A DNA stretch of 62,220 bases from Parcubacteria group bacterium Greene0416_39. GTDB taxonomy: Bacteria > Patescibacteriota > Minisyncoccia > Minisyncoccales > UBA10102. Under the pieces are notes generated by a model. That model searched no databases, was not told the DNA's origin, and saw only the letters and a program-made list of their open reading frames with translations. The stretch spans positions 1 through 62,220 of the forward strand of contig VMEU01000006.1 of assembly GCA_007375675.1 (NCBI GenBank), written 5' to 3'. The first letter of the stretch is position 1. The number at the start of each line of letters is the position of its first letter. A program made the translations under genes and the position numbers. Positions 5,968 to 46,634 of this stretch are shown in pieces.

Positions 5968-5996
5968 AGTATATCGTACAGGAAAACCCGTGTCAA
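5968..5996 (-). promoter_or_regulatory. Sigma70 promoter for 23S-5S
   Basis: TTGACA-17 bp-TATACT; boxA-like GCACTTTGACAA downstream near 5836-5846. Confidence 0.85.
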
Positions 5997-10032: not shown

Positions 10033-10872
10033 AATATTTTCTACGAACTTAGAATTGACGTTCCCATCGCGCCTGCGGATTTCCCGCACGCGACGAGCTC
10101 TAGTGCATCTGCTGTTTTAAAGCATACAGATTTGCTAACCCTATTTTGGTCAAATGTTCTCCCTTCTTAATTCTTTTCATCAAATCGCAGAAAATTCTGA
10201 AGTCTTTCAGCTTAGATTTTAATCGCAATCGGTATCGCCTAAAGAAAGGAACGATAATTTTCTCCAAATCCTTTCTATTCGCTACCTCATAGCGATAGCA
10301 ATTCTGATGATTCTTTCGTTTATCCACTTGGAAGTAGACATTTCCACAGCGAAAGAACTCTTTAAGCTTATAGAGAATATCTTTATCCCTTTCAATAAGC
10401 TTAAGATAGAATCGAGGTTCAACTTTGACTCTTCTTTTTACTTGTGTTTGTATCTGAGGATTCTTCACGTACACCGTAAAGCTTCCTTCCCCATCTACAA
10501 GCCCAAGAATGTAATCAGGAGTTAACATAATTAGAGAAAGTCCTTCCCCTTGCGGGTACTATGACTTAGCTGACTTCTGACGCTGCGTAAGTTCATTATA
10601 TCTCACATCCTGTGAAATAACAACGTCAGATCTCCTCGGGTTACTCAGTACTCTATTCCAGGCATCCTAGATGGACTTTCATTCTAACCTTCCTCATCCT
10701 CACCGCCTGTAATGAGTCGGTCATCCATTGTTTTTCTAGGCTGTCTTTTGCCGCCAGGTCCTTCGCTTGCCATCTCGCGATGGCAAACTACCTTTTGGCT
10801 ACGTCCCGAAGGCGTACATCGGGAGTGCGGATTTGAACCGCACAGAATACTAAGCTGCCGAGCGCTTTTATT
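10033..10872 (-). mobile_element. Group II-like intron in 16S rRNA (after ~E. coli C1399)
   Basis: Exons rejoin as TGCACTCAC|CGCCCGTCA; no U|...G group I ends; DIII-like AAGTCAGC..ATAGTAC..GAAGG and DV-like hairpin with a 2-nt bulge near the 3' end. Confidence 0.75.
10100..10528 (-). CDS. Intron-encoded single-motif LAGLIDADG endonuclease
   Basis: YILGLVDGEGSF, FFRCGNV, IIVPFF, GEHLT motifs. Confidence 0.92.
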   Translation of the reverse strand: MLTPDYILGLVDGEGSFTVYVKNPQIQTQVKRRVKVEPRFYLKLIERDKDILYKLKEFFRCGNVYFQVDKRKNHQNCYRYEVANRKDLEKIIVPFFRRYRLRLKSKLKDFRIFCDLMKRIKKGEHLTKIGLANLYALKQQMH

Positions 10873-11342
10873 GTGAGTGCAGGACCCAGGAACATATTCC
10901 GCGCCACATGGCTGATTGGCGCGTACTAGCGATTCCGACTTCATGAGGTCGAGTTTCAGACCTCAATCCGAACTGAGGAATAGTTTAAGGGATTAGCTCC
11001 GCGTTGCCGCCTTGCAACCCTCTGTCTATTCCATTGTAACATGTGTGCCGCCCAGGATATCAAAGGGCCACGCTGACTTGGCGTCATCCCCGCCTTCCTC
11101 TTGGTTGTCCCAAGCAGTTCTCTGTGACACATAAAACACAGAGTAGGGGTTGCGCATGTTGCCCGATTTAACGGAGCGCCTCAAGGTACATGCTGACGAC
11201 AGCCGTGCAGCACCTGGACTAATGTCCTTGTGGGTGGCCCCGACTTTCGTCGGGGTTTCATTAGTCTGTCAAACCCTGGTAAGGTTCTTCGGTTGTTGAC
11301 GAATTAAGCCACATGTTCCACCGCTTGTGTGGGTCCCCGCCT

Positions 11343-11374
<32 letters not shown>

Positions 11375-11470
11375 TCCCAGGCGGGATGCTTAACGCGTTA
11401 GCTTCGCCACGTGAAGGGTCGACACTTCACATAGCCAGCATCCAATGTTTAGGGCGTGGACTACAAGGGT

Positions 11471-12449
11471 CATCTTGTAGAATTTTTACTATCCGTGTTG
11501 CCACGGAGATCGGACTATATCACTTTCTGAAATCGCTTATACCTTGATTTTTTCTCTGCAAGATATTTTTCTATCACGTCACGAGAAAACGATGTTTTCT
11601 CGACGACTTCAGAAATCCAGCGTTCTTGTAATTGGGAATCTTTGTAAAGAAGAATAACTTTGGGTAGTATACTTGCCACTGGAACATACGGTAGAATGAT
11701 GCGTAAGAACTTTTTGAGTTCTTCGCTCGAACGGATCCATAATCGGTAATACTCACGCTTTGTCCCGTCACGCTCTCGAACAATCTTCGCAATCGCGACT
11801 TTAACTTTCCAGACCTTCTGCAGGTACTGTGCTAAAATCTTTTGGTCTTCGAGCAGAAACGGGTCCGTGCAAAACACTCCGCGTTTTCCATTACCAATCA
11901 ACGAACCATCATCAAGCCACCACACCGCCAACGAAAGCGGTGTCAGCTGGTTAAGCCATTTTCGCTTAATGACTAAGCGATTATGCTTATGGGTCAGCTG
12001 GTATAATTCACTAAGTTGCTCTAGTGCTAGGCTCTGATATCGCAACATTTCTCCACCATAGCCATTCGGTTCTTGCTTCCACCAGCATTTTTCTCCGGAA
12101 ATCTCTTTCAACTGTTCAACTTTCCAGAAGAAATAATCCTGTTGGAGAACCGAGTGACGAAAAGAAAAACGTGCGTTCTTGTAGGGTTTTTGGATCCTTA
12201 AAGATCCGTCACCAAGCAAAGAACCCAGCATAACTTCTTTACATCGATCCGACAAAAATGAATGCTTTGTATTCATTTTCTATCTTCTTACTTACATAGT
12301 CTCTACGGGGTCAATACCTCTATCGAGGCTGACTTCCCTCGGGATTGTCCGTTCGACTGAACGGAGTTCCCCGATATAGCTAGATGCGCACTCCGATGTT
12401 GCCACCGAAGGGGACACCATTCGTCTCGTTTCATACGAGACAAGGATTT
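11471..12449 (-). mobile_element. Group I intron in 16S rRNA (after E. coli U793)
   Basis: Exons rejoin as GGATTAGAT|ACCCTTGTAGTCC; AGAGACTA and GATATAGTCC core; terminal G. Confidence 0.92.
11515..12276 (-). CDS. Intron-encoded LAGLIDADG homing endonuclease
   Basis: MLGSLLGDG and LAVWWLDDG motifs. Confidence 0.92.
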   Translation of the reverse strand: MNTKHSFLSDRCKEVMLGSLLGDGSLRIQKPYKNARFSFRHSVLQQDYFFWKVEQLKEISGEKCWWKQEPNGYGGEMLRYQSLALEQLSELYQLTHKHNRLVIKRKWLNQLTPLSLAVWWLDDGSLIGNGKRGVFCTDPFLLEDQKILAQYLQKVWKVKVAIAKIVRERDGTKREYYRLWIRSSEELKKFLRIILPYVPVASILPKVILLYKDSQLQERWISEVVEKTSFSRDVIEKYLAEKKSRYKRFQKVI

Positions 12450-13188
12450 ATCTAATCCTTTTTGCTCCCCACGCTTTCGTCCCTCACCGTCAGGGTTGCC
12501 CCAGCTGAATGCTTTCGCCTTTGGTGTTCTTCTCGATATCAACGGATTTCACCCCTCCACCGAGAATTCCATCAGCCTCTAACACCCTCTAGCCCGCCAG
12601 TTTTCCCTGCAGTTCCAAGGTTGAGCCCTGGACATTTAACAAGAAACTTGGCGGGCCGGCTACGGACGCTTTACGCCCAGTAAATCCGGATAACGCTTGG
12701 AGGCTCTGTTTTACCGCTACTGCTGGCACAGAGTTAGTCCCTCCTTATTCTCAGGGTACCTTCTTCCCTCGATTGCTCTCGGGATTATTCCCCTGCAAAA
12801 GTGGTTTACAACCCGAAGGCCTTCATCCCACACGCGGTGTCGCTGGATCAGGGTTTCCCCCATTGTCCAATATTCTCGGCTGCTGCCTCCCGTAGGAGTA
12901 TGGCCCGTATCTCAATGCCATCGTTGGGGAACGCGCTCTCACGCCCCCTACCCGTCATAGCCTTGGTAGGCTTTTACCCTGCCAACTAGCTGATAGGACG
13001 CAGACCGCTCCCAAAGTGGATTACTCCTTTACCCTTCGATTGCTCTCAGGGACCATCGGGAATTAGCTCCGCTTTCGCGGAGTTATGCCCGTCTTTGGGG
13101 TACGTATCTACGTGTTACTAACTCGTTTGCCGCTGCTCCCTCGGTCTTGCGACCTCGGGAACCGCTTGACTTGCATGCCTTATCCACA

Positions 13189-13224
<36 letters not shown>

Positions 13225-13309
13225 TGGCTAAACTTGAGAGTAGGAACAACTCTCAGAAATCAACTGTATTCAATTGACAATGTCCTACCCCCGCGGAAAA
13301 AGTCATTCA

Positions 13310-28782: not shown

Positions 28783-29801
28783 GGTGTATTAAGATATTGT
28801 ATCATCGCTGGAGGTTCTTTTGCAAGGTATTCCCAGAAGAGATGCCCAAGGAAGAGCAAAACAATCAAACTAAGATAGGCAAAGAAAAACTGCAGATACG
28901 TAAGGCTAAGGTTTGCAAAGAAGTCCGCAAAGGTAATGGTGCCCCAGGAAGAAATGGAAATAACGCCGGCAACATCTCCTATTCTTTCCCATTTCTTTGC
29001 CAACTGTTTGCCCCCCTCCTTTACTGAAGCCATCATTTTTCTCGTGATGGGGCCCGCAAGCAGAGCGCCGTTAACAATCAAGATGCCCACCACGGTCTGC
29101 ATAAAAAAGAATTTTGGCGTAAGGGCAATGGCTTCTTGAAATATGAAGGCAACGCTCAAGAAATCAATGCCAAGCCCAACCCAGATAACCTTGCTTATTG
29201 TGGGAAACAAGGGGTAGACATGCTGTTTTAAAATTGCAGAGGATTTTGACGTGAGAAACAGAAAGTCCAACACCAGCACCGTGCCAACAGTAAGAATAGA
29301 GTGAAGCGTATGCCCCCAAAAAAACACTTGCGCTTTATCAAACGCGCCGTGCCAAGAAAACAGCATCATCAAAAGCACAACAAACCCAAGCTGCAATGCA
29401 TAGAACCATTCCATATGCTTTTGGAAGAGTTGAGGCCGTAGGCGGCGCAGCGCAAAACCCCCGGCAAACGCAAGCATCCAGAGAAAAACAAAGGGGCTCG
29501 AAACTTCTAGTCCCAAAGAGCGCTGTTCTTCTGTTGCAACAATGCCTATTCCTTCATGGGCGTATGCTGGGAGAAAAGAAGAGAGCAGAAACCACGAAAG
29601 AAACGCTATGAAGAATCCAGCTGCAAGAGGAAAAAGGAGTCTGGCCCCAAGCCATTCGTAGATTATGCAGGAGGCTGCTTCTTTGGCACGGTGTTTACTC
29701 CATTTGGTAAATACAAACCCCCACAGGGATACGGCTCCCGCCAAGGCTAACCCAAGCTGTCTTCCAAAAAGAAGGAATTCTGAAAATTCAACGCTAAACA
29801 T
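28779..29801 (-). CDS. Hypothetical polytopic membrane protein
   Basis: 340-aa ORF with ~9 hydrophobic segments, overlapping start/stop with neighbours. Confidence 0.8.
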
Positions 29802-29982
29802 TTGTTTTCCCTTGAAGGGAATTTTGAAAAAGAAATAATAGCACCCCTATCCCGTAGAAAATCTTTCCAACCATCCACGCAAAAAAGCTTCCGGTAAAGA
29901 AGATAAAGGGAAGACTCAAAAGAAGGGTTGCCCCTGCAAGCAACAAAAAGATCTCGCTTATGTGTCTATTATTGTACCACAT
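29794..29982 (-). CDS. Small two-TM hypothetical protein
   Basis: Hydrophobic ORF coupled to neighbours; start uncertain. Confidence 0.55.
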   Translation of the reverse strand: MWYNNRHISEIFLLLAGATLLLSLPFIFFTGSFFAWMVGKIFYGIGVLLFLFQNSLQGKTNV

Positions 29983-30139
29983 GAGGCGGTGCTCCGTGAG
30001 CTATTATCTCTATATTACAACTTTTGTGCTCTTTGCACCACGCTTCGCATTTCTCGGCCCATTCTTTCTCTGCATACATAAAACCGCACTCTTTACACCG
30101 ATACAATTCTTTACCTTGCTGTTGAATTGTTTTAACCAT
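29969..30139 (-). CDS. Small Cys-rich putative zinc-finger protein (56 aa)
   Basis: Manual translation MVKTIQQQGKELYRCKECGFMYAEKEWAEKCEAWCKEHKSCNIEIIAH...; below the ORF-track cutoff. Confidence 0.8.
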   Translation of the reverse strand: MVKTIQQQGKELYRCKECGFMYAEKEWAEKCEAWCKEHKSCNIEIIAHGAPPHVVQ

Positions 30140-30219
30140 AAGTGGCGTGTACCTCGGTTCATCGAATCTGAAGATTCTTCAGAATCTGAATGATCTAGAA
30201 CCGAGGATTTTAAAGGGTA

Positions 30220-30247
30220 TTGACACCCAGCGAACGCTTGCTATACT
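30220..30247 (+). promoter_or_regulatory. Sigma70 promoter convergent on the NYN gene
   Basis: TTGACA-16 bp-(TG.)TATACT. Confidence 0.7.
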
Positions 30248-30252
30248 GTAAC

Positions 30253-30310
30253 TATCACTACGAAAAAGACCCTTATGAGGTTCCGTCCCCATCGGGGGCT
30301 TTTTCTTTTT
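30253..30310 (+). ncRNA. Candidate small RNA overlapping the NYN 3' end
   Basis: Promoter, then hairpin AAAAAGACCC...GGGGCTTTTT and a U-tract; no convincing ORF. Confidence 0.5.
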
Positions 30311-30800
30311 CGGCCCCTAGAATTGAACGCTGGTCGTTTATATATGCAATCCGCGCACCCGTTCTTTTAAGAAGTATTGAGCACCTTTTTTCATTACTTG
30401 GTGATAATATCGCCAGAAACTTATGCTTCTCTAGTAAAAACTTAACCAAACCTGCATAGTCACCATCGCTTGCTATAATAACCGCCCCTTCGAACTTATT
30501 CTCATATGCGTCACGCGTTGCCTGCAATACCAAATCAGCATCACAATTTCCTTTTGGCTTTCCGTCGCCATCATAAACCACTTCTTTGAACACAAGCGTG
30601 AAACCTGATTCTTGCAGGTGCTTATAAAGCTCTTTGTATTTTGGTATCAATCCAATGAATAAGTAGGCGGTACGCACTCCGTATTTTTCAGATAACCACA
30701 CTCTGAATCTTTTGTAATCAAGCTTCCAGCCCAAGCTCGCAACGCCTTTATATAGGTTAGCACCATCTATATAGGCAAAATTCTTTTCTTTCAGATTCAT
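30273..30800 (-). CDS. NYN-domain (LabA/DUF88, PIN-like) putative RNase
   Basis: AYIDGANL, KGNCDADL, ASDGDY. Confidence 0.92.
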   Translation of the reverse strand: MNLKEKNFAYIDGANLYKGVASLGWKLDYKRFRVWLSEKYGVRTAYLFIGLIPKYKELYKHLQESGFTLVFKEVVYDGDGKPKGNCDADLVLQATRDAYENKFEGAVIIASDGDYAGLVKFLLEKHKFLAILSPSNEKRCSILLKRTGARIAYINDQRSILGAEKEKAPDGDGTS

Positions 30801-30989
30801 AAAAATGTTGTGTATCTCGGTCTAGCCGCCCATTTCAATGGGCGAGCCTCGCCTTCTTGGCGGGGTCATTTTAGCACAAAACCTGTCCCGTAGTGAACTT
30901 GTTCTACTACTGGGATGAGATAAATGAGACACTGGATAGGGGTATTATCTCGTGTCTCATTTCGCAATGTATTTCAGAAGCGATTCTTC

Positions 30990-31688
30990 CTAGTCAAAAC
31001 AGGTTTCTTTACCTTTTAGTTCGTTGAACGCTTTTGCGCAAGAAGAATCAAGTTTTGTATATTCCTTGAGTACCCGCACGGTCTCCTCAATAAATCCTCC
31101 CACGGTACCATCAGAGTCATCGACGCCGCCCCGGCACAGTTTATCATCAAGCCGCAAAAGCATATCAATTAGTAACTTGGTTGTTTGCTCACTTACCGGC
31201 AACTCGGAAACAATCTTTGATAGACGATTACATCCTTCCGAAAGTGAGTTTTGATATGAAAACCATATCCGGGACGGGCCATTGTATGGCTTGATATATT
31301 TCATGGCGCCAGTGATAGATTTTTTAGTTGTGGACAATTCTTCTTTGCTTAATGCTCCCAACCGACCGCTGCAAGTGACCTGAGATACGGGTCGCTTGTC
31401 TTCGTCGCTAAGTTTTCTACCGCCCATCACGGCATAGATTGCCACTGCCACCATGTGCTTGCAGAGCGTATCGTTCTGACCAAGATAGCATTCGCAGCTC
31501 CCCCGGTCATAACGATGACTATCAACATAAACTCGATAAGGCTTGGTGCCCAAAACAGTTGCGAAAAAGCCGTTCAGTTCTTCTGTCCATTGGGTTACCT
31601 TTCTGCTTTCATACGCATTAACCGCCTTCTCAAAAGTCGGCTCATCCGTTGCAAACTTAATTTTTTCTAGATCGTAGGCTGGCAACAT
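30990..31688 (-). CDS. SWIM zinc-finger protein, possibly slightly truncated
   Basis: CEC...CKH SWIM motif, GGVDDSDG; frame continues 10 codons past the TAG. Confidence 0.85.
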   Translation of the reverse strand: MLPAYDLEKIKFATDEPTFEKAVNAYESRKVTQWTEELNGFFATVLGTKPYRVYVDSHRYDRGSCECYLGQNDTLCKHMVAVAIYAVMGGRKLSDEDKRPVSQVTCSGRLGALSKEELSTTKKSITGAMKYIKPYNGPSRIWFSYQNSLSEGCNRLSKIVSELPVSEQTTKLLIDMLLRLDDKLCRGGVDDSDGTVGGFIEETVRVLKEYTKLDSSCAKAFNELKGKETCFD

Positions 31689-31742
31689 AAAAATACAATA
31701 GTAATTTGACATTAGCACCTCAATGTGTAAAAATAAAGGTGT

Positions 31743-31925
31743 ATGAAAAACGGCAATCAAGCCACAATCTTGACCCCAAAAGAGGTGACAGAATATAAAA
31801 CACCTTTGCCTGCAAGCTGGAAAAGGGCAGTCGGGCTTTTACGCAGAAAAAGAAAAGCTCTGGAGCAACATTTAAAAACCGTCCGCAAAGAATGGGGTCG
31901 TCATTCTCCTCAATATGACGATTGA
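31743..31925 (+). CDS. Putative antitoxin of the PIN toxin
   Basis: 60-aa ORF overlapping the PIN gene start; C-terminal RKEW. Confidence 0.7.
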   Translation: MKNGNQATILTPKEVTEYKTPLPASWKRAVGLLRRKRKALEQHLKTVRKEWGRHSPQYDD

Positions 31926-32286
31926 TGCAAATATTGCTATCGCATTCCTTGGAGGAGATACTTTGGTTGTTTCTGAACTCTCCAAGTGGAGAGAAGAAGG
32001 ACTACCTCTTTTTCTTTCCACCGTTGCGGAAACCGAAATACTTTCCTTCTCTCATTGGACAAGCCAAGAACGAATCGCTACAGAGCAATTTCTTGAGCAG
32101 AACTTCACCTCGATTCCCTTTGATCGCAACCTCTCCAGGATTGCGGCTTCCATTCGTAGAGACGTAAAGATCAGATTCCCCGATGCTGCCATTGCAGCAA
32201 CTGCTCTCTTTACTCATACTCCTCTTGTCACTCGCAACCAACGCGACTTCAAACGCATCCCAAATCTGCGTATTGTAAGCATGTAA
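31915..32286 (+). CDS. vapC: VapC-family PIN-domain toxin
   Basis: IDAN, E, PDAAIAATA, LVTRN..DF. Confidence 0.92.
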   Translation: MTIDANIAIAFLGGDTLVVSELSKWREEGLPLFLSTVAETEILSFSHWTSQERIATEQFLEQNFTSIPFDRNLSRIAASIRRDVKIRFPDAAIAATALFTHTPLVTRNQRDFKRIPNLRIVSM

Positions 32287-44961: not shown

Positions 44962-44990
44962 TTGACGGGCACCGATCCCTCATATAGAAT
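44962..44990 (+). promoter_or_regulatory. Sigma70 promoter convergent on the second NYN gene
   Basis: TTGACG-17 bp-TAGAAT. Confidence 0.7.
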
Positions 44991-44995
44991 AGAAA

Positions 44996-45041
44996 TACCA
45001 AACGTGGGGCGGATATTTCGTATGTCCGTCCCTTTACTTTT
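44996..45041 (+). ncRNA. Candidate small RNA ending at the NYN stop
   Basis: Hairpin GGGGCGGATAT...ATGTCCGTCCC plus TTTACTTTT directly after the promoter. Confidence 0.5.
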
Positions 45042-45681
45042 CCTCAAACTTAATTTCATTCTCCAAGCGGACAAAATCCCGAAAGTTGCTGCCAGCAAAC
45101 TGCCGCAATTCCTTTGCCGTCCTCGGCCCCCTAGCCAAAATAAGCACATCTTTCCCAGTTTCTTTCAGGTACTTGAGCACGGGCAGAAAGTCGCCATCCC
45201 CAGAAAGGATTATCGCCCTATCAAAATTATCCTTTTCTTTCATAAGATGAAAAGCCATATCCACGTCGCAATTCGCTTTCCTTTTTGTGCTTCCATCATC
45301 TTGATCGTATAACTTTACCGGCTTGAGGAATAGTTTGTATCCAAACTCCTGCAGCCGTAAGTAGAATCGAACTCGCCGTAGGTGACGATCCAGCAATAAA
45401 AGCTTTGCTTCGGTAAACGCGCTTCCTTTTCGAGCAATTAAACCTTGGAGATAACCAGCCAGTTCCCCTACTGGAACGGAGTTGTTTTGAAGGTAATTAT
45501 AGGGAAAGTCATAAATTTCCACTCCGCCAAAATAAAATGCTTCAGAAGTATCATACTTCTTCCGTAGGTAATGCAAAAGCTTTTCATAATCAATACTCCA
45601 CCCCAAACTCTTCACGCCTCCGTAAAACAGGTTCGAGGCGTCTATAAACGCGTATGTTCGTTTTGGGTTTTTAGAATTCAT
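45034..45681 (-). CDS. NYN-domain putative RNase
   Basis: AFIDASNL, KANCDVDM, SGDGDF. Confidence 0.92.
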   Translation of the reverse strand: MNSKNPKRTYAFIDASNLFYGGVKSLGWSIDYEKLLHYLRKKYDTSEAFYFGGVEIYDFPYNYLQNNSVPVGELAGYLQGLIARKGSAFTEAKLLLLDRHLRRVRFYLRLQEFGYKLFLKPVKLYDQDDGSTKRKANCDVDMAFHLMKEKDNFDRAIILSGDGDFLPVLKYLKETGKDVLILARGPRTAKELRQFAGSNFRDFVRLENEIKFEEK

Positions 45682-46634
45682 AGAGTAGTAATTGGCCTCG
45701 CCTGAAGAATATAGAACTGACTGTTTTCAAAGCCCCATTCAATATCTTGAGGATACTTACAGTGATTTTCTATTTTCATACAGATATCTGCAAGAGCAAG
45801 GACTTGTTTATCAGTTAATTTCTGTTTTCCTTGTTTTGCTTTTGGAACCGGTACTTCTTTGGTGCCCTTCGTATTCCTAATAATCATAGTTTCTTGGCGC
45901 GAGATATTCTTGTCAAGAATAGTAGTAGGCTTCCCTTGGGTGTACTTGTGAATGATGTAGGTATCAGGAGTAATTTTGCCTCCCACAATTGCCTCGCCCA
46001 AACCATACCCTGCCTCAATAACCATTTGGCCCTTATCTTTGGTAACTGGATGCACGGTAAAACAAATCCCTGAAACCTCTGACTGAATCATTTTTTGCAC
46101 CACCACAGCCACAGACACTGGTTTTTTGTGGAGGCTTTTCTCAAATCTATAAAAAATAGCTCGCGGAGTAAAAAGCGAGGACCAGCATTTCTTTACTGAC
46201 TCTAACAGATTTTCTTTTGTTACATTGAGGTAGCTTTCGAGTTCGCCGGCCCAGGAAGCGACAGAAGAATCTTCTGCTGTTGCAGAGGAACGTACCGCAA
46301 CATACTTTGCCCCCAGTTTTGAATACTCTTTGAGAATCTTTTCTCCCAAGTCCCGGGGGAATTCTGCATCAGAAATGAGCTCTCGTATTTCGTTGGAAGC
46401 TCTATCTACCGAGTTTATATCTTTGTAATTTACCTCGTGCATTTTTGCCTCTATTTCTGGGTCTAAATCAGTATCGGCAAGAAACTTGTCAAAGACAGAC
46501 GCAAGAACCACAAAACCAGGGGGCACTGGAAACCCTGCCCTTGTCATTTCTCCAAGCGACGCACCCTTGCCCCCTGCAATAAATATATCTTTTGCGCTGA
46601 TTTTCTCAAAGCGAAGAATAACTTCTCTGTTCAT
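45678..46634 (-). CDS. PEP/pyruvate-binding ATP-grasp domain protein (PEP synthase N-terminal half)
   Basis: GGKGASLGE, VAVRSSATAED, GLGEAIV, DIEW, ILQARPITT. Confidence 0.92.
   Translation of the reverse strand: MNREVILRFEKISAKDIFIAGGKGASLGEMTRAGFPVPPGFVVLASVFDKFLADTDLDPEIEAKMHEVNYKDINSVDRASNEIRELISDAEFPRDLGEKILKEYSKLGAKYVAVRSSATAEDSSVASWAGELESYLNVTKENLLESVKKCWSSLFTPRAIFYRFEKSLHKKPVSVAVVVQKMIQSEVSGICFTVHPVTKDKGQMVIEAGYGLGEAIVGGKITPDTYIIHKYTQGKPTTILDKNISRQETMIIRNTKGTKEVPVPKAKQGKQKLTDKQVLALADICMKIENHCKYPQDIEWGFENSQFYILQARPITTL

Follow-up and report, generated by a model that had tools for sequence, protein, structure and literature searches.

We analysed a 62,220-nucleotide (nt) stretch of DNA, contig VMEU01000006.1 of Parcubacteria group bacterium Greene0416_39 (genome size 517 kilobases, kb), and refer to this whole stretch as the window. 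Our subject is a gene for an NYN-domain protein on its minus strand at about 30 kb (copy 1), the short hairpin RNA predicted to be transcribed towards the end of that gene from the plus strand, and a second pair of this layout at 45 kb (copy 2). The coordinates are collected in Table 1. As detailed below, the RNA gene is linked to NYN genes across related genomes, and the two together behave as an inserted, apparently mobile cassette.

The NYN gene and the facing promoter and hairpin

An earlier inspection of the letters of this DNA (the sequence-only reading) had placed a TG-extended promoter just downstream of the NYN gene and facing it, serving no convincing open reading frame (ORF) and followed by a hairpin and a U tract antisense to the last codons of the gene. 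All of these features lie where they had been placed. The promoter is the top scorer of the 7 promoter-like sites within 29000-32000. Over both strands of the genome, 45 sites match at least 11 of the 12 consensus positions (12.2 in shuffled sequences), and 8 sites do so and carry the TG as well (1.0 in shuffled sequences); the small-RNA promoter is one of these 8. Others of this class within the window, such as those at 5996 and 13518 (-), precede rRNA or tRNA genes, judged by position. The ORFs on the promoter strand are just mechanical ones, of 31 and 79 amino acids (aa).

At copy 1, the distance between the -10 element and the hairpin is 14 nt. The segment 30250-30312 folds with a minimum free energy of -18.2 kcal/mol (z -2.9), and 2 of 200 shuffles fold equally well. 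The end of the NYN gene, with its last 11 codons (KEKAPDGDGTS) and the stop at 30273-30275, lies inside the hairpin. Terminator prediction marks the inner stem, 30285-30299, as a plus-strand terminator, and with the TTTTTCTTTT that follows it this stem has the form of an intrinsic terminator; on the minus strand, the 3' arm of the outer stem supplies the U run. Note that this two-way terminator property adds to the reading of the hairpin as an RNA gene and does not replace it. A scan of the window at the Rfam gathering thresholds placed no family at the copy-1 locus, and with Rfam 15 the best match in 30100-30400 at E<=10 reached 15.8 bits, the gathering score being 39. ARAGORN found neither a tRNA nor a tmRNA at this locus. 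The layout of promoter and hairpin at copy 1 is far beyond chance. The promoter-like site 5' of the NYN gene (Table 1) is not conserved in the relatives, whose NYN 5' regions all differ there.

The copy-1 protein matches the Pfam family NYN (PF01936, LabA/DUF88) over residues 10-133 with 47.9 bits, compared to a cut-off of 24.2. Its AlphaFold 2 (AF2) model, with a predicted local distance difference test score (pLDDT) of 91.1, has the PIN-like alpha/beta fold of solved NYN domains; Foldseek aligned it with 2QIP at a template-modelling score on the query (TMq) of 0.73 and with the MARF1 NYN domain at 0.60-0.63. The sequence itself also matches 2QIP (E 3.5e-6). Residues D12, D87, D112 and D114 are invariant in 39/39 aligned NYN sequences and, by comparison with the family, would be the catalytic or metal-site positions. 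The NYN protein looks active, and we predict that it is a ribonuclease. The CRISPR-associated NYN protein of Bacteroides fragilis is a sequence-nonspecific, Mn-dependent single-stranded ribonuclease (Chi and White 2024, PMC11346440). Left unchecked, such an enzyme would do harm. With 3537 clusters at E<=1e-10 this is a large family, and the names given to its members are just NYN or LabA/DUF88 protein; two members of this set have Parcubacteria-type source names. Among the candidate defence models of PADLOC, the copy-1 protein matches HEC-09 (E 1.7e-6) and NYN (E 3.6e-4). A phage or plasmid origin was considered and rejected: relatives of the NYN protein were absent from a viral contig collection (single-protein query) and from a phage collection, and the NYN genes on plasmids, in Sinorhizobium and others, are only ~30% identical.

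Table 1. Features of the two NYN loci in the window
Feature	Position	Strand	Basis or remark
NYN-domain gene, copy 1, 175 aa	30273..30800	-	ORF and Pfam match
Small-RNA promoter, TTGACA-16-TATACT, TG-extended -10	30220..30247	+	11/12 consensus positions
Predicted small RNA, ~58 nt, both ends predicted	30254..30311	+	Fold, covariance model R1, covariation
Small-RNA 5' leader, AUCACUACG	30254-30262	+	Loosely or partly conserved among related RNAs
Hairpin	30262..30305	+	Followed by a U tract to ~30311
Hairpin loop UUCCGU, G-C closing pair	30281-30286	+	
Promoter-like site 5' of NYN copy 1, TTCACT-18-TAAAAT with TG	30868..30897	-	9/12; tentative
NYN-domain gene, copy 2, 215 aa	45034..45681	-	29% identical to copy 1
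Second small-RNA promoter, TTGACG-17-TAGAAT	44962..44990	+	10/12
Predicted copy-2 small RNA, leader ACCAAACGUG	44997..45043	+	U-rich tail enters the NYN stop codon
Copy-2 hairpin, 11 base pairs (bp)	45006..45032	+	T-rich tail

Conservation of the RNA and its linkage to NYN genes

With the NYN protein as query we searched 61 related genomes, and at 19 homologous NYN loci we inspected the sequence downstream of the stop (loci and genomes carry our own L and G numbers where these are needed). In 17 of the 19, a convergent TTGAC[AT] promoter lies 55-97 nt beyond the stop, followed by the same hairpin. Of the two exceptions, L005 has the RNA, and a premature TGA at codon 65 shifted the position of its stop; in L015, RNA and NYN are encoded on one strand. 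The hairpin lies entirely beyond the NYN stop in 5/19 loci and elsewhere the reading frame runs into it, which accounts for the conserved, odd tails of the NYN proteins (KEKAPDGDGT, KRKSTA, PHKDET). In the AF2 model of copy 1, the tail (residues 163-175) has low confidence. Since five hairpins lie beyond the stop and the tails are translated hairpin, protein coding is not the reason for the conservation of the hairpin.

The fold was assessed in two alignments. The first, of 17 RNAs, was made with MAFFT independently of the covariance model and holds one 17-pair helix in which 92% of the cells are paired, compared to 82% in shuffles; two-sided changes occur at 8/17 pairs and in 29 cells, a cell count reached by 0/500 shuffles. 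The second, of 53 RNAs, was guided by the covariance model and is hence fitted to it. Here 93% of the cells are paired, compensatory changes occur in 13/17 pairs (115 cells), none of five measures was reached by any shuffle (0/500), and all slid registers are far worse. Among 895 cells, 72 hold a G-U pair on the promoter strand, compared to 9 with A-C, which is G-U on the NYN strand. This excess places the selected fold on the strand opposite NYN. The loop is kept as G[UYYYGU]C throughout the RNA family, a conservation that, judging from the aligned sequences, exceeds the needs of a terminator.

The promoter is conserved together with the hairpin. It reads TTGACA or TTGACT in 48/53 loci and has a TG-extended -10 in 40/53, with scores of 12/12 in 9 loci, 11/12 in 21 and 10/12 in 18, and the end of the -10 lies 13-17 nt 5' of the hairpin in 50/53. 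Rfam 15 holds no family that matches this RNA. By its conservation and covariation the hairpin RNA gene is real, and its transcription is predicted. The comparison of homologues that the sequence-only reading had put forward as a check thus returned a conserved convergent promoter and a covarying hairpin, and it did so for both copies (see below for copy 2).

We searched the 61 genomes with the covariance model R1, which matches the copy-1 locus at 30245-30316 with 70.4 bits, as well as with the NYN protein. R1 gave 24 matches of 55-85 bits in 20 genomes, the next best scoring 35, and these are exactly the 20 genomes that have the copy-1 NYN subfamily at E<=1e-16; 9 other genomes have weak R1 matches only (27-35 bits). 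We rejected the possibility that the R1 hairpin is a generic dispersed repeat, since a genome has 1-4 strong matches (in most genomes one or two) and these go together with NYN. Of 151 genomes sampled across the class, 47 have an RNA match (E<=1e-4) and 68 an NYN match (E<=1e-5). In a phylum-wide sample, RNA matches were found in 16/151 genomes, and 7/10 newly fetched loci abut NYN.

Pooling of the 61-genome and class-wide samples gave 78 RNA matches, a count that overstates the number of events because related genomes are not independent. A full-length NYN gene stands beside 57 of the 78 (one of these, G003:C8, is L005 with its premature stop) and a partial or split NYN beside 11, while 10 have no NYN within 250 nt (one at a contig end), so that RNA genes beside a broken NYN or alone make up 21/78. 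Of the 68 that adjoin NYN or a remnant, 67 are convergent with it and one stands in tandem. In this tandem case, G045, the RNA lies on the NYN strand with its own promoter, and antisense overlap is therefore not obligatory. The overlap with the NYN 3' end, found in 67/68 and not in G045, is a geometric one. By our own tally, 10/12 RNA loci with a decayed or absent NYN keep promoters of 10-12 of 12. One RNA gene without NYN (L066, on contig 2 of G001) has a 12/12 promoter and is convergent to a Doc/Fic toxin gene with an AbrB-type antitoxin gene upstream.

All NYN matches of at least 48% identity carry the RNA. An NYN gene of 47% identity (G007:C43), without an R1 match even unfiltered, has a convergent promoter of its own (TTGACA/TGCTATAAT) together with a hairpin of another kind. 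We also inspected 17 more distant NYN loci (35-56% identity) with no R1 match: 9 have a convergent promoter of at least 10/12, with further hairpin types, 5 have weaker promoter matches seen by eye only, and 3, all of one family, have none. In these three (L107, L119 and L120), the NYN protein ends in LEYKKK, a mutM-like gene (MPELPEVE) follows within ~10 nt, and there is no RNA gene; these may be a domesticated form that lost it.

The sequence-only reading had also pointed out a second occurrence of the layout, at the 45-kb NYN gene. This recurrence extends well beyond the window, and with a different RNA family: in nine loci, namely the window copy and 8 orthologues in other genomes, a convergent promoter is present at 9/9 and scores 10-12 of 12 at 8/9. 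The leader ACUAAAC(G/U)UG and the 11-pair hairpin are kept in all 9, and in the alignment of these RNAs (A3) 99/99 cells are paired, compensatory changes occur at 7/11 pairs, and one pair is a U-G wobble in 9/9 RNAs, which likewise exceeds the needs of a terminator. R1 has no match at the loci of NYN copy 2 or copy 3, and the copy-2 RNA is therefore a separate RNA family. The copy-2 protein matches Pfam NYN with 51.2 bits in the genome scan and the PADLOC NYN model at E 1e-10. Its start codon overlaps, at 45678-45681, the stop of an upstream gene like those for phosphoenolpyruvate-utilising enzymes (45678..46634), to which copy 2 may be translationally coupled. A third NYN gene of the genome (L031; G000 contig 4, 32140-32586, minus strand) gives the best Pfam NYN match, with 130 bits. 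A pnp-like gene follows it on the same strand, the NYN gene has neither a convergent promoter nor such an RNA, and it looks like a core paralogue.

Insertion-like context of the units

The surroundings of the unit vary. The 80 ORFs flanking 40 units are unrelated between loci, and the units are placed between, or within the 5' parts of, unrelated genes. Some of the flanking pairs are normally adjacent, namely transketolase halves, atpG|atpD and hsdM|hsdS, and genes for AbiEii, Fic, SocA-like, RhuM or integrase proteins are found at some of the loci as well. The view of the sequence-only reading that no protein antitoxin is apparent agrees with this, since the flanking genes vary by locus and no conserved protein partner was found. 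Several genomes have more than one copy, and units of different subtypes stand in tandem in G092.

Direct repeats of 16-111 nt (E<1e-3) bracket 16/42 units, and in 11 units they are at least 34 nt long; in a control on random sites of one genome, the present one only, repeats were found at 5/300 sites, and repeats of at least 34 nt at 2/300. One copy of the repeat runs from a point just 5' of the NYN start, the other from a point immediately past the promoter of the RNA. The first codons of the downstream host gene fall within the repeats of L071, L002 and L093, and L093 has three occurrences of the 5' part of a RhuM-like gene. L067 is also among the bracketed loci, and the repeat of L130 consists of two identical 60-nt copies. 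Accordingly, the NYN genes differ in their 5' regions, which are unrelated; in several of them an extended -10 stands just 6-7 nt upstream of the ATG.

In addition, a DnaA-box-like 9-mer lies 0-15 nt outside the RNA -35 in 14/53 loci, with 0.022 expected per locus (counted with at most 1 mismatch in either orientation). It is found at the outer edge of the cassette in L067, L068, L071-L078, L080, L086 and L003, and by eye in L102, L110 and L111. The possibility that it signals an adjacent dnaA was rejected, a DnaA domain being present in 0/80 flanking ORFs. The window copy has neither the 9-mer nor a significant flanking repeat; its NYN gene and the next gene share only a short stretch of similar sequence ahead of their start codons. 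Taken together, the NYN gene and the RNA behave as an inserted, apparently mobile cassette.

The neighbourhood of copy 1 holds further features. A SWIM zinc-finger gene adjoins it (30990-31760, minus strand) and matches PADLOC PDC-S62 (E 2.8e-13). At 31743-32286 on the plus strand, 1.1 kb from copy 1, a PIN-domain (VapC-like) gene begins within a 60-aa ORF, and the two are probably a VapBC-type toxin-antitoxin pair. A long near-perfect hairpin at 30153-30207 (minus strand), with 9-bp outer arms CCUCGGUUC/GAACCGAGG and an inner palindrome, sits in the leader of a small zinc-ribbon gene (DUF7128, 29969..30139). ACCGAGG..ATG-like stretches precede other genes as well, NYN included. Elsewhere in the window, the 16S rRNA match at 10808-13230 (minus strand) is 2423 nt long compared to the 1533 positions of the model, so that ~0.9 kb of sequence is inserted. 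Mimicry of the 16S 3' end by the small-RNA leader was also considered; the sequence at the annotated end lacked the tail expected there, and the idea was dropped.

Possible roles of the RNA and relation to known systems

Among the readings considered we favour, tentatively and as a possibility short of a probability, a mobile cassette in which the NYN ribonuclease is paired with an RNA antidote acting on the protein, in a type III-like manner. The window would then contain this two-gene cassette twice, and the cassette is widespread in genomes of the candidate phyla radiation (CPR)/Patescibacteria type. The hairpin RNA would be made in excess from one of the strongest promoters in the genome, and its stem, with the conserved loop G[UYYYGU]C, would bind the NYN protein as an inhibitor or pseudo-substrate. 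The convergent layout and the shared two-way terminator would make the unit compact and keep the strong promoter from driving NYN, and the cassette, as selfish insertable DNA, would persist by addiction. Here we infer that the RNA is transcribed, that NYN is toxic and that the two bind each other. An RNA directed at the protein is favoured because of the conserved loop and wobble, the tandem locus, the lone RNA genes and the very strong promoter. Moreover, the decay in the R1 subfamily is one-sided: the RNA outlives NYN, and never the reverse at 48% identity or more, as one would expect of a poison and its antidote.

Several observations weigh against an RNA antidote of this kind. The convergent overlap, in 67/68 cases and in all three RNA families, is something that an antisense RNA requires and a protein-binding RNA does not. 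The RNA is a single hairpin where a type III RNA has tandem repeats that its toxin processes, and neither ToxN nor AbiQ has a fold like that of NYN. Intact NYN genes occur without a convergent RNA (L107, L119, L120 and the third NYN gene), which counts against every poison-antidote reading, and the convergent promoter reaches at least 10/12 in just 9 of the 17 distant NYN loci. RNA genes are also present in the NYN-less genomes G099, G112 and G148, where the RNA could have a use of its own. Finally, the relatedness of the genomes makes the counts overstate the number of events.

An antisense, type I-like role is nearly as good an account, and by itself it too is doubtful. The RNA would pair, by way of complementary loops, with the 3' end and terminator of the NYN mRNA, to which it is fully complementary, and NYN would be kept low because the duplex is cut by RNase III or the mRNA is destabilised. 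The convergent overlap, which extends to the copy-2 family (9/9) and to further RNA types, suits this account about as well as a type III-like one, and a gene for RNase III is present in the genome. There are also precedents: par Fst/RNAII have a shared two-way terminator, B. subtilis pairs of the txpA/RatA type overlap at their 3' ends, and the toxins of SymE/SymR and RalR/RalA are nucleases. However, the tandem locus G045 allows no complementarity to the NYN mRNA, RNA genes are kept without NYN, and conservation of the loop sequence and of a wobble pair is not needed for complementarity, which would arise automatically. Where the hairpin is wholly past the stop (5/19 loci), just the 3' untranslated region would be targeted, and the toxin of a type I pair is usually a small membrane peptide. 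A par-like second pairing site in the NYN 5' region was rejected as unsupported, since a crude duplexfold test on 16 loci gave a mean z of -0.1.

We consider it unlikely that the two form a working ribonucleoprotein whose one function, for instance in RNA turnover or defence, needs both parts, the RNA serving the nuclease as cofactor, decoy, dedicated substrate or specificity element. The tight linkage of RNA and NYN, the conserved loop and the partly conserved 5' leader would suit such a complex, as would the place of NYN models among the PADLOC candidate defence proteins (HEC-09, NYN) and the defence or toxin-antitoxin neighbourhoods of some loci, the window with its VapC-like PIN gene being one example. 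On the other hand, the sequence of the RNA is too conserved across genera for a variable guide, and if each part needed the other one would not expect 21/78 RNA genes to outlive NYN, nor some NYN genes to lack the RNA.

The repeats and the 9-mer raise the question of whether NYN itself moves the cassette, as a free-standing homing endonuclease would, with the RNA restraining or assisting it. This is improbable in our view, although direct repeats bracket 16/42 units compared to 5/300 random sites (with the identical 60-nt pair of L130), insertions fall between or inside the 5' parts of unrelated genes, the 9-mer recurs at the outer edge in 14/53 loci, and no other mobility gene lies within the unit. 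The repeat lengths vary and match no known cut-and-paste chemistry, the repeats could stem from recombination and not from a nuclease, and the random-site control comes from one genome. In addition, the characterised NYN domains act on RNA, according to PMC11346440 and the titles of the MARF1 and KHNYN structure entries. In a stronger form of this idea, NYN and RNA would be an integrase-free mobile element of a new kind in ultra-small bacteria, whose ribonucleoprotein itself directs or carries out insertion at host-gene 5' ends and leaves behind the 16-111-nt repeats and, at one end of the unit, the fixed 9-mer, while the RNA also shields the cell from the nuclease; taken as a whole, we regard this as a long shot. 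Least probable by far is a plain two-way terminator of NYN with a promoter-like sequence by chance, for although the hairpin has an A run and a U run that could terminate both strands, and NYN-less RNA copies lie at the ends of unrelated convergent genes, the promoter is kept at a fixed distance (48/53 loci), generic terminators reach at most 35 bits with R1 in the 61 genomes, the G-U bias reflects selection on the promoter strand, and the loop sequence is conserved.

If an RNA antidote to NYN is the correct reading, the RNA is a family missing from Rfam 15, paired with a nuclease in a new kind of nuclease-plus-RNA module. It is present in about one third of the sampled genomes of one CPR class (47/151) and also outside that class, and to our knowledge CPR bacteria have almost no known regulatory RNAs or characterised toxin-antitoxin systems. 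The unit offers a testable case of an RNA antidote for an NYN/PIN-like ribonuclease, and its apparent insertion, with long repeats, into operons of essential genes bears on how minimal genomes gain and lose DNA. The covariance model lets annotators mark the RNA, and the odd conserved tails of NYN proteins are explained as translated hairpin.

The sequence-only reading had pointed to type III systems such as ToxIN and AbiQ as cases of a small RNA that neutralises an RNase toxin, and had put forward antitoxin, substrate or guide of NYN as roles that the RNA may have. Like ToxIN and AbiQ, and like CptIN and TenpIN, the unit joins an endoribonuclease gene to a gene for a small non-coding RNA with no protein antitoxin, the RNA is strongly expressed (here as predicted from its promoter), and the distribution is patchy and island-like. 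In type III systems, the RNA consists of tandem direct repeats upstream on the toxin strand, behind a leaky terminator, and a toxin with the ToxN/AbiQ fold cuts the precursor and stays bound to it. In contrast, the NYN-linked RNA is one hairpin, downstream and convergent (67/68), and the nuclease fold is NYN/PIN-like, so that membership of type III did not hold up. The convergent type I pairs (par Fst/RNAII of pAD1, txpA/RatA and bsrG/SR4) likewise have a short RNA running towards the toxin gene and over its 3' end or terminator, and SymE/SymR and RalR/RalA likewise have an enzyme as toxin. Unlike type I systems, the presumed toxin here is an NYN enzyme of 160-215 aa (in copy 1 a soluble protein of 175 aa) and not a small hydrophobic peptide, and the RNA has a conserved loop, outlasts the toxin gene, is once tandem and has no second pairing region at the 5' end. 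The free-standing homing-endonuclease cassettes of T4-like phages are also single-nuclease units between conserved genes, with regulatory hairpins and possibly antisense RNA; they have a different nuclease fold, whereas the NYN unit resides on bacterial chromosomes, with long flanking repeats of variable length and no viral relatives found in the collections searched.

The B. fragilis CRISPR-associated protein (PMC11346440) is likewise a small NYN protein, which acts on a defined small RNA, and is a metal-dependent single-stranded RNA endonuclease; unlike the unit in the window, which has no CRISPR array or cas genes and whose RNA has its own promoter, it trims CRISPR RNA in a type III CRISPR locus. 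VPA0982 of Vibrio parahaemolyticus (2QIP) and the NYN domains of MARF1 and KHNYN (5YAA, 6FDL, 8WZC) have the same fold (TM-scores of 0.73 and 0.60-0.63, as above), but at 16-22% identity, and the titles of their entries name no partner RNA gene. We found no description of such an NYN-RNA pair in the literature, subscription journals lying outside our coverage. By analogy with these systems, the unit would work like an RNA-antitoxin system whose layout stands between type I and type III, and it would be a variant and not a member of either, because the defining features of type III and the peptide toxin of type I both fail here.

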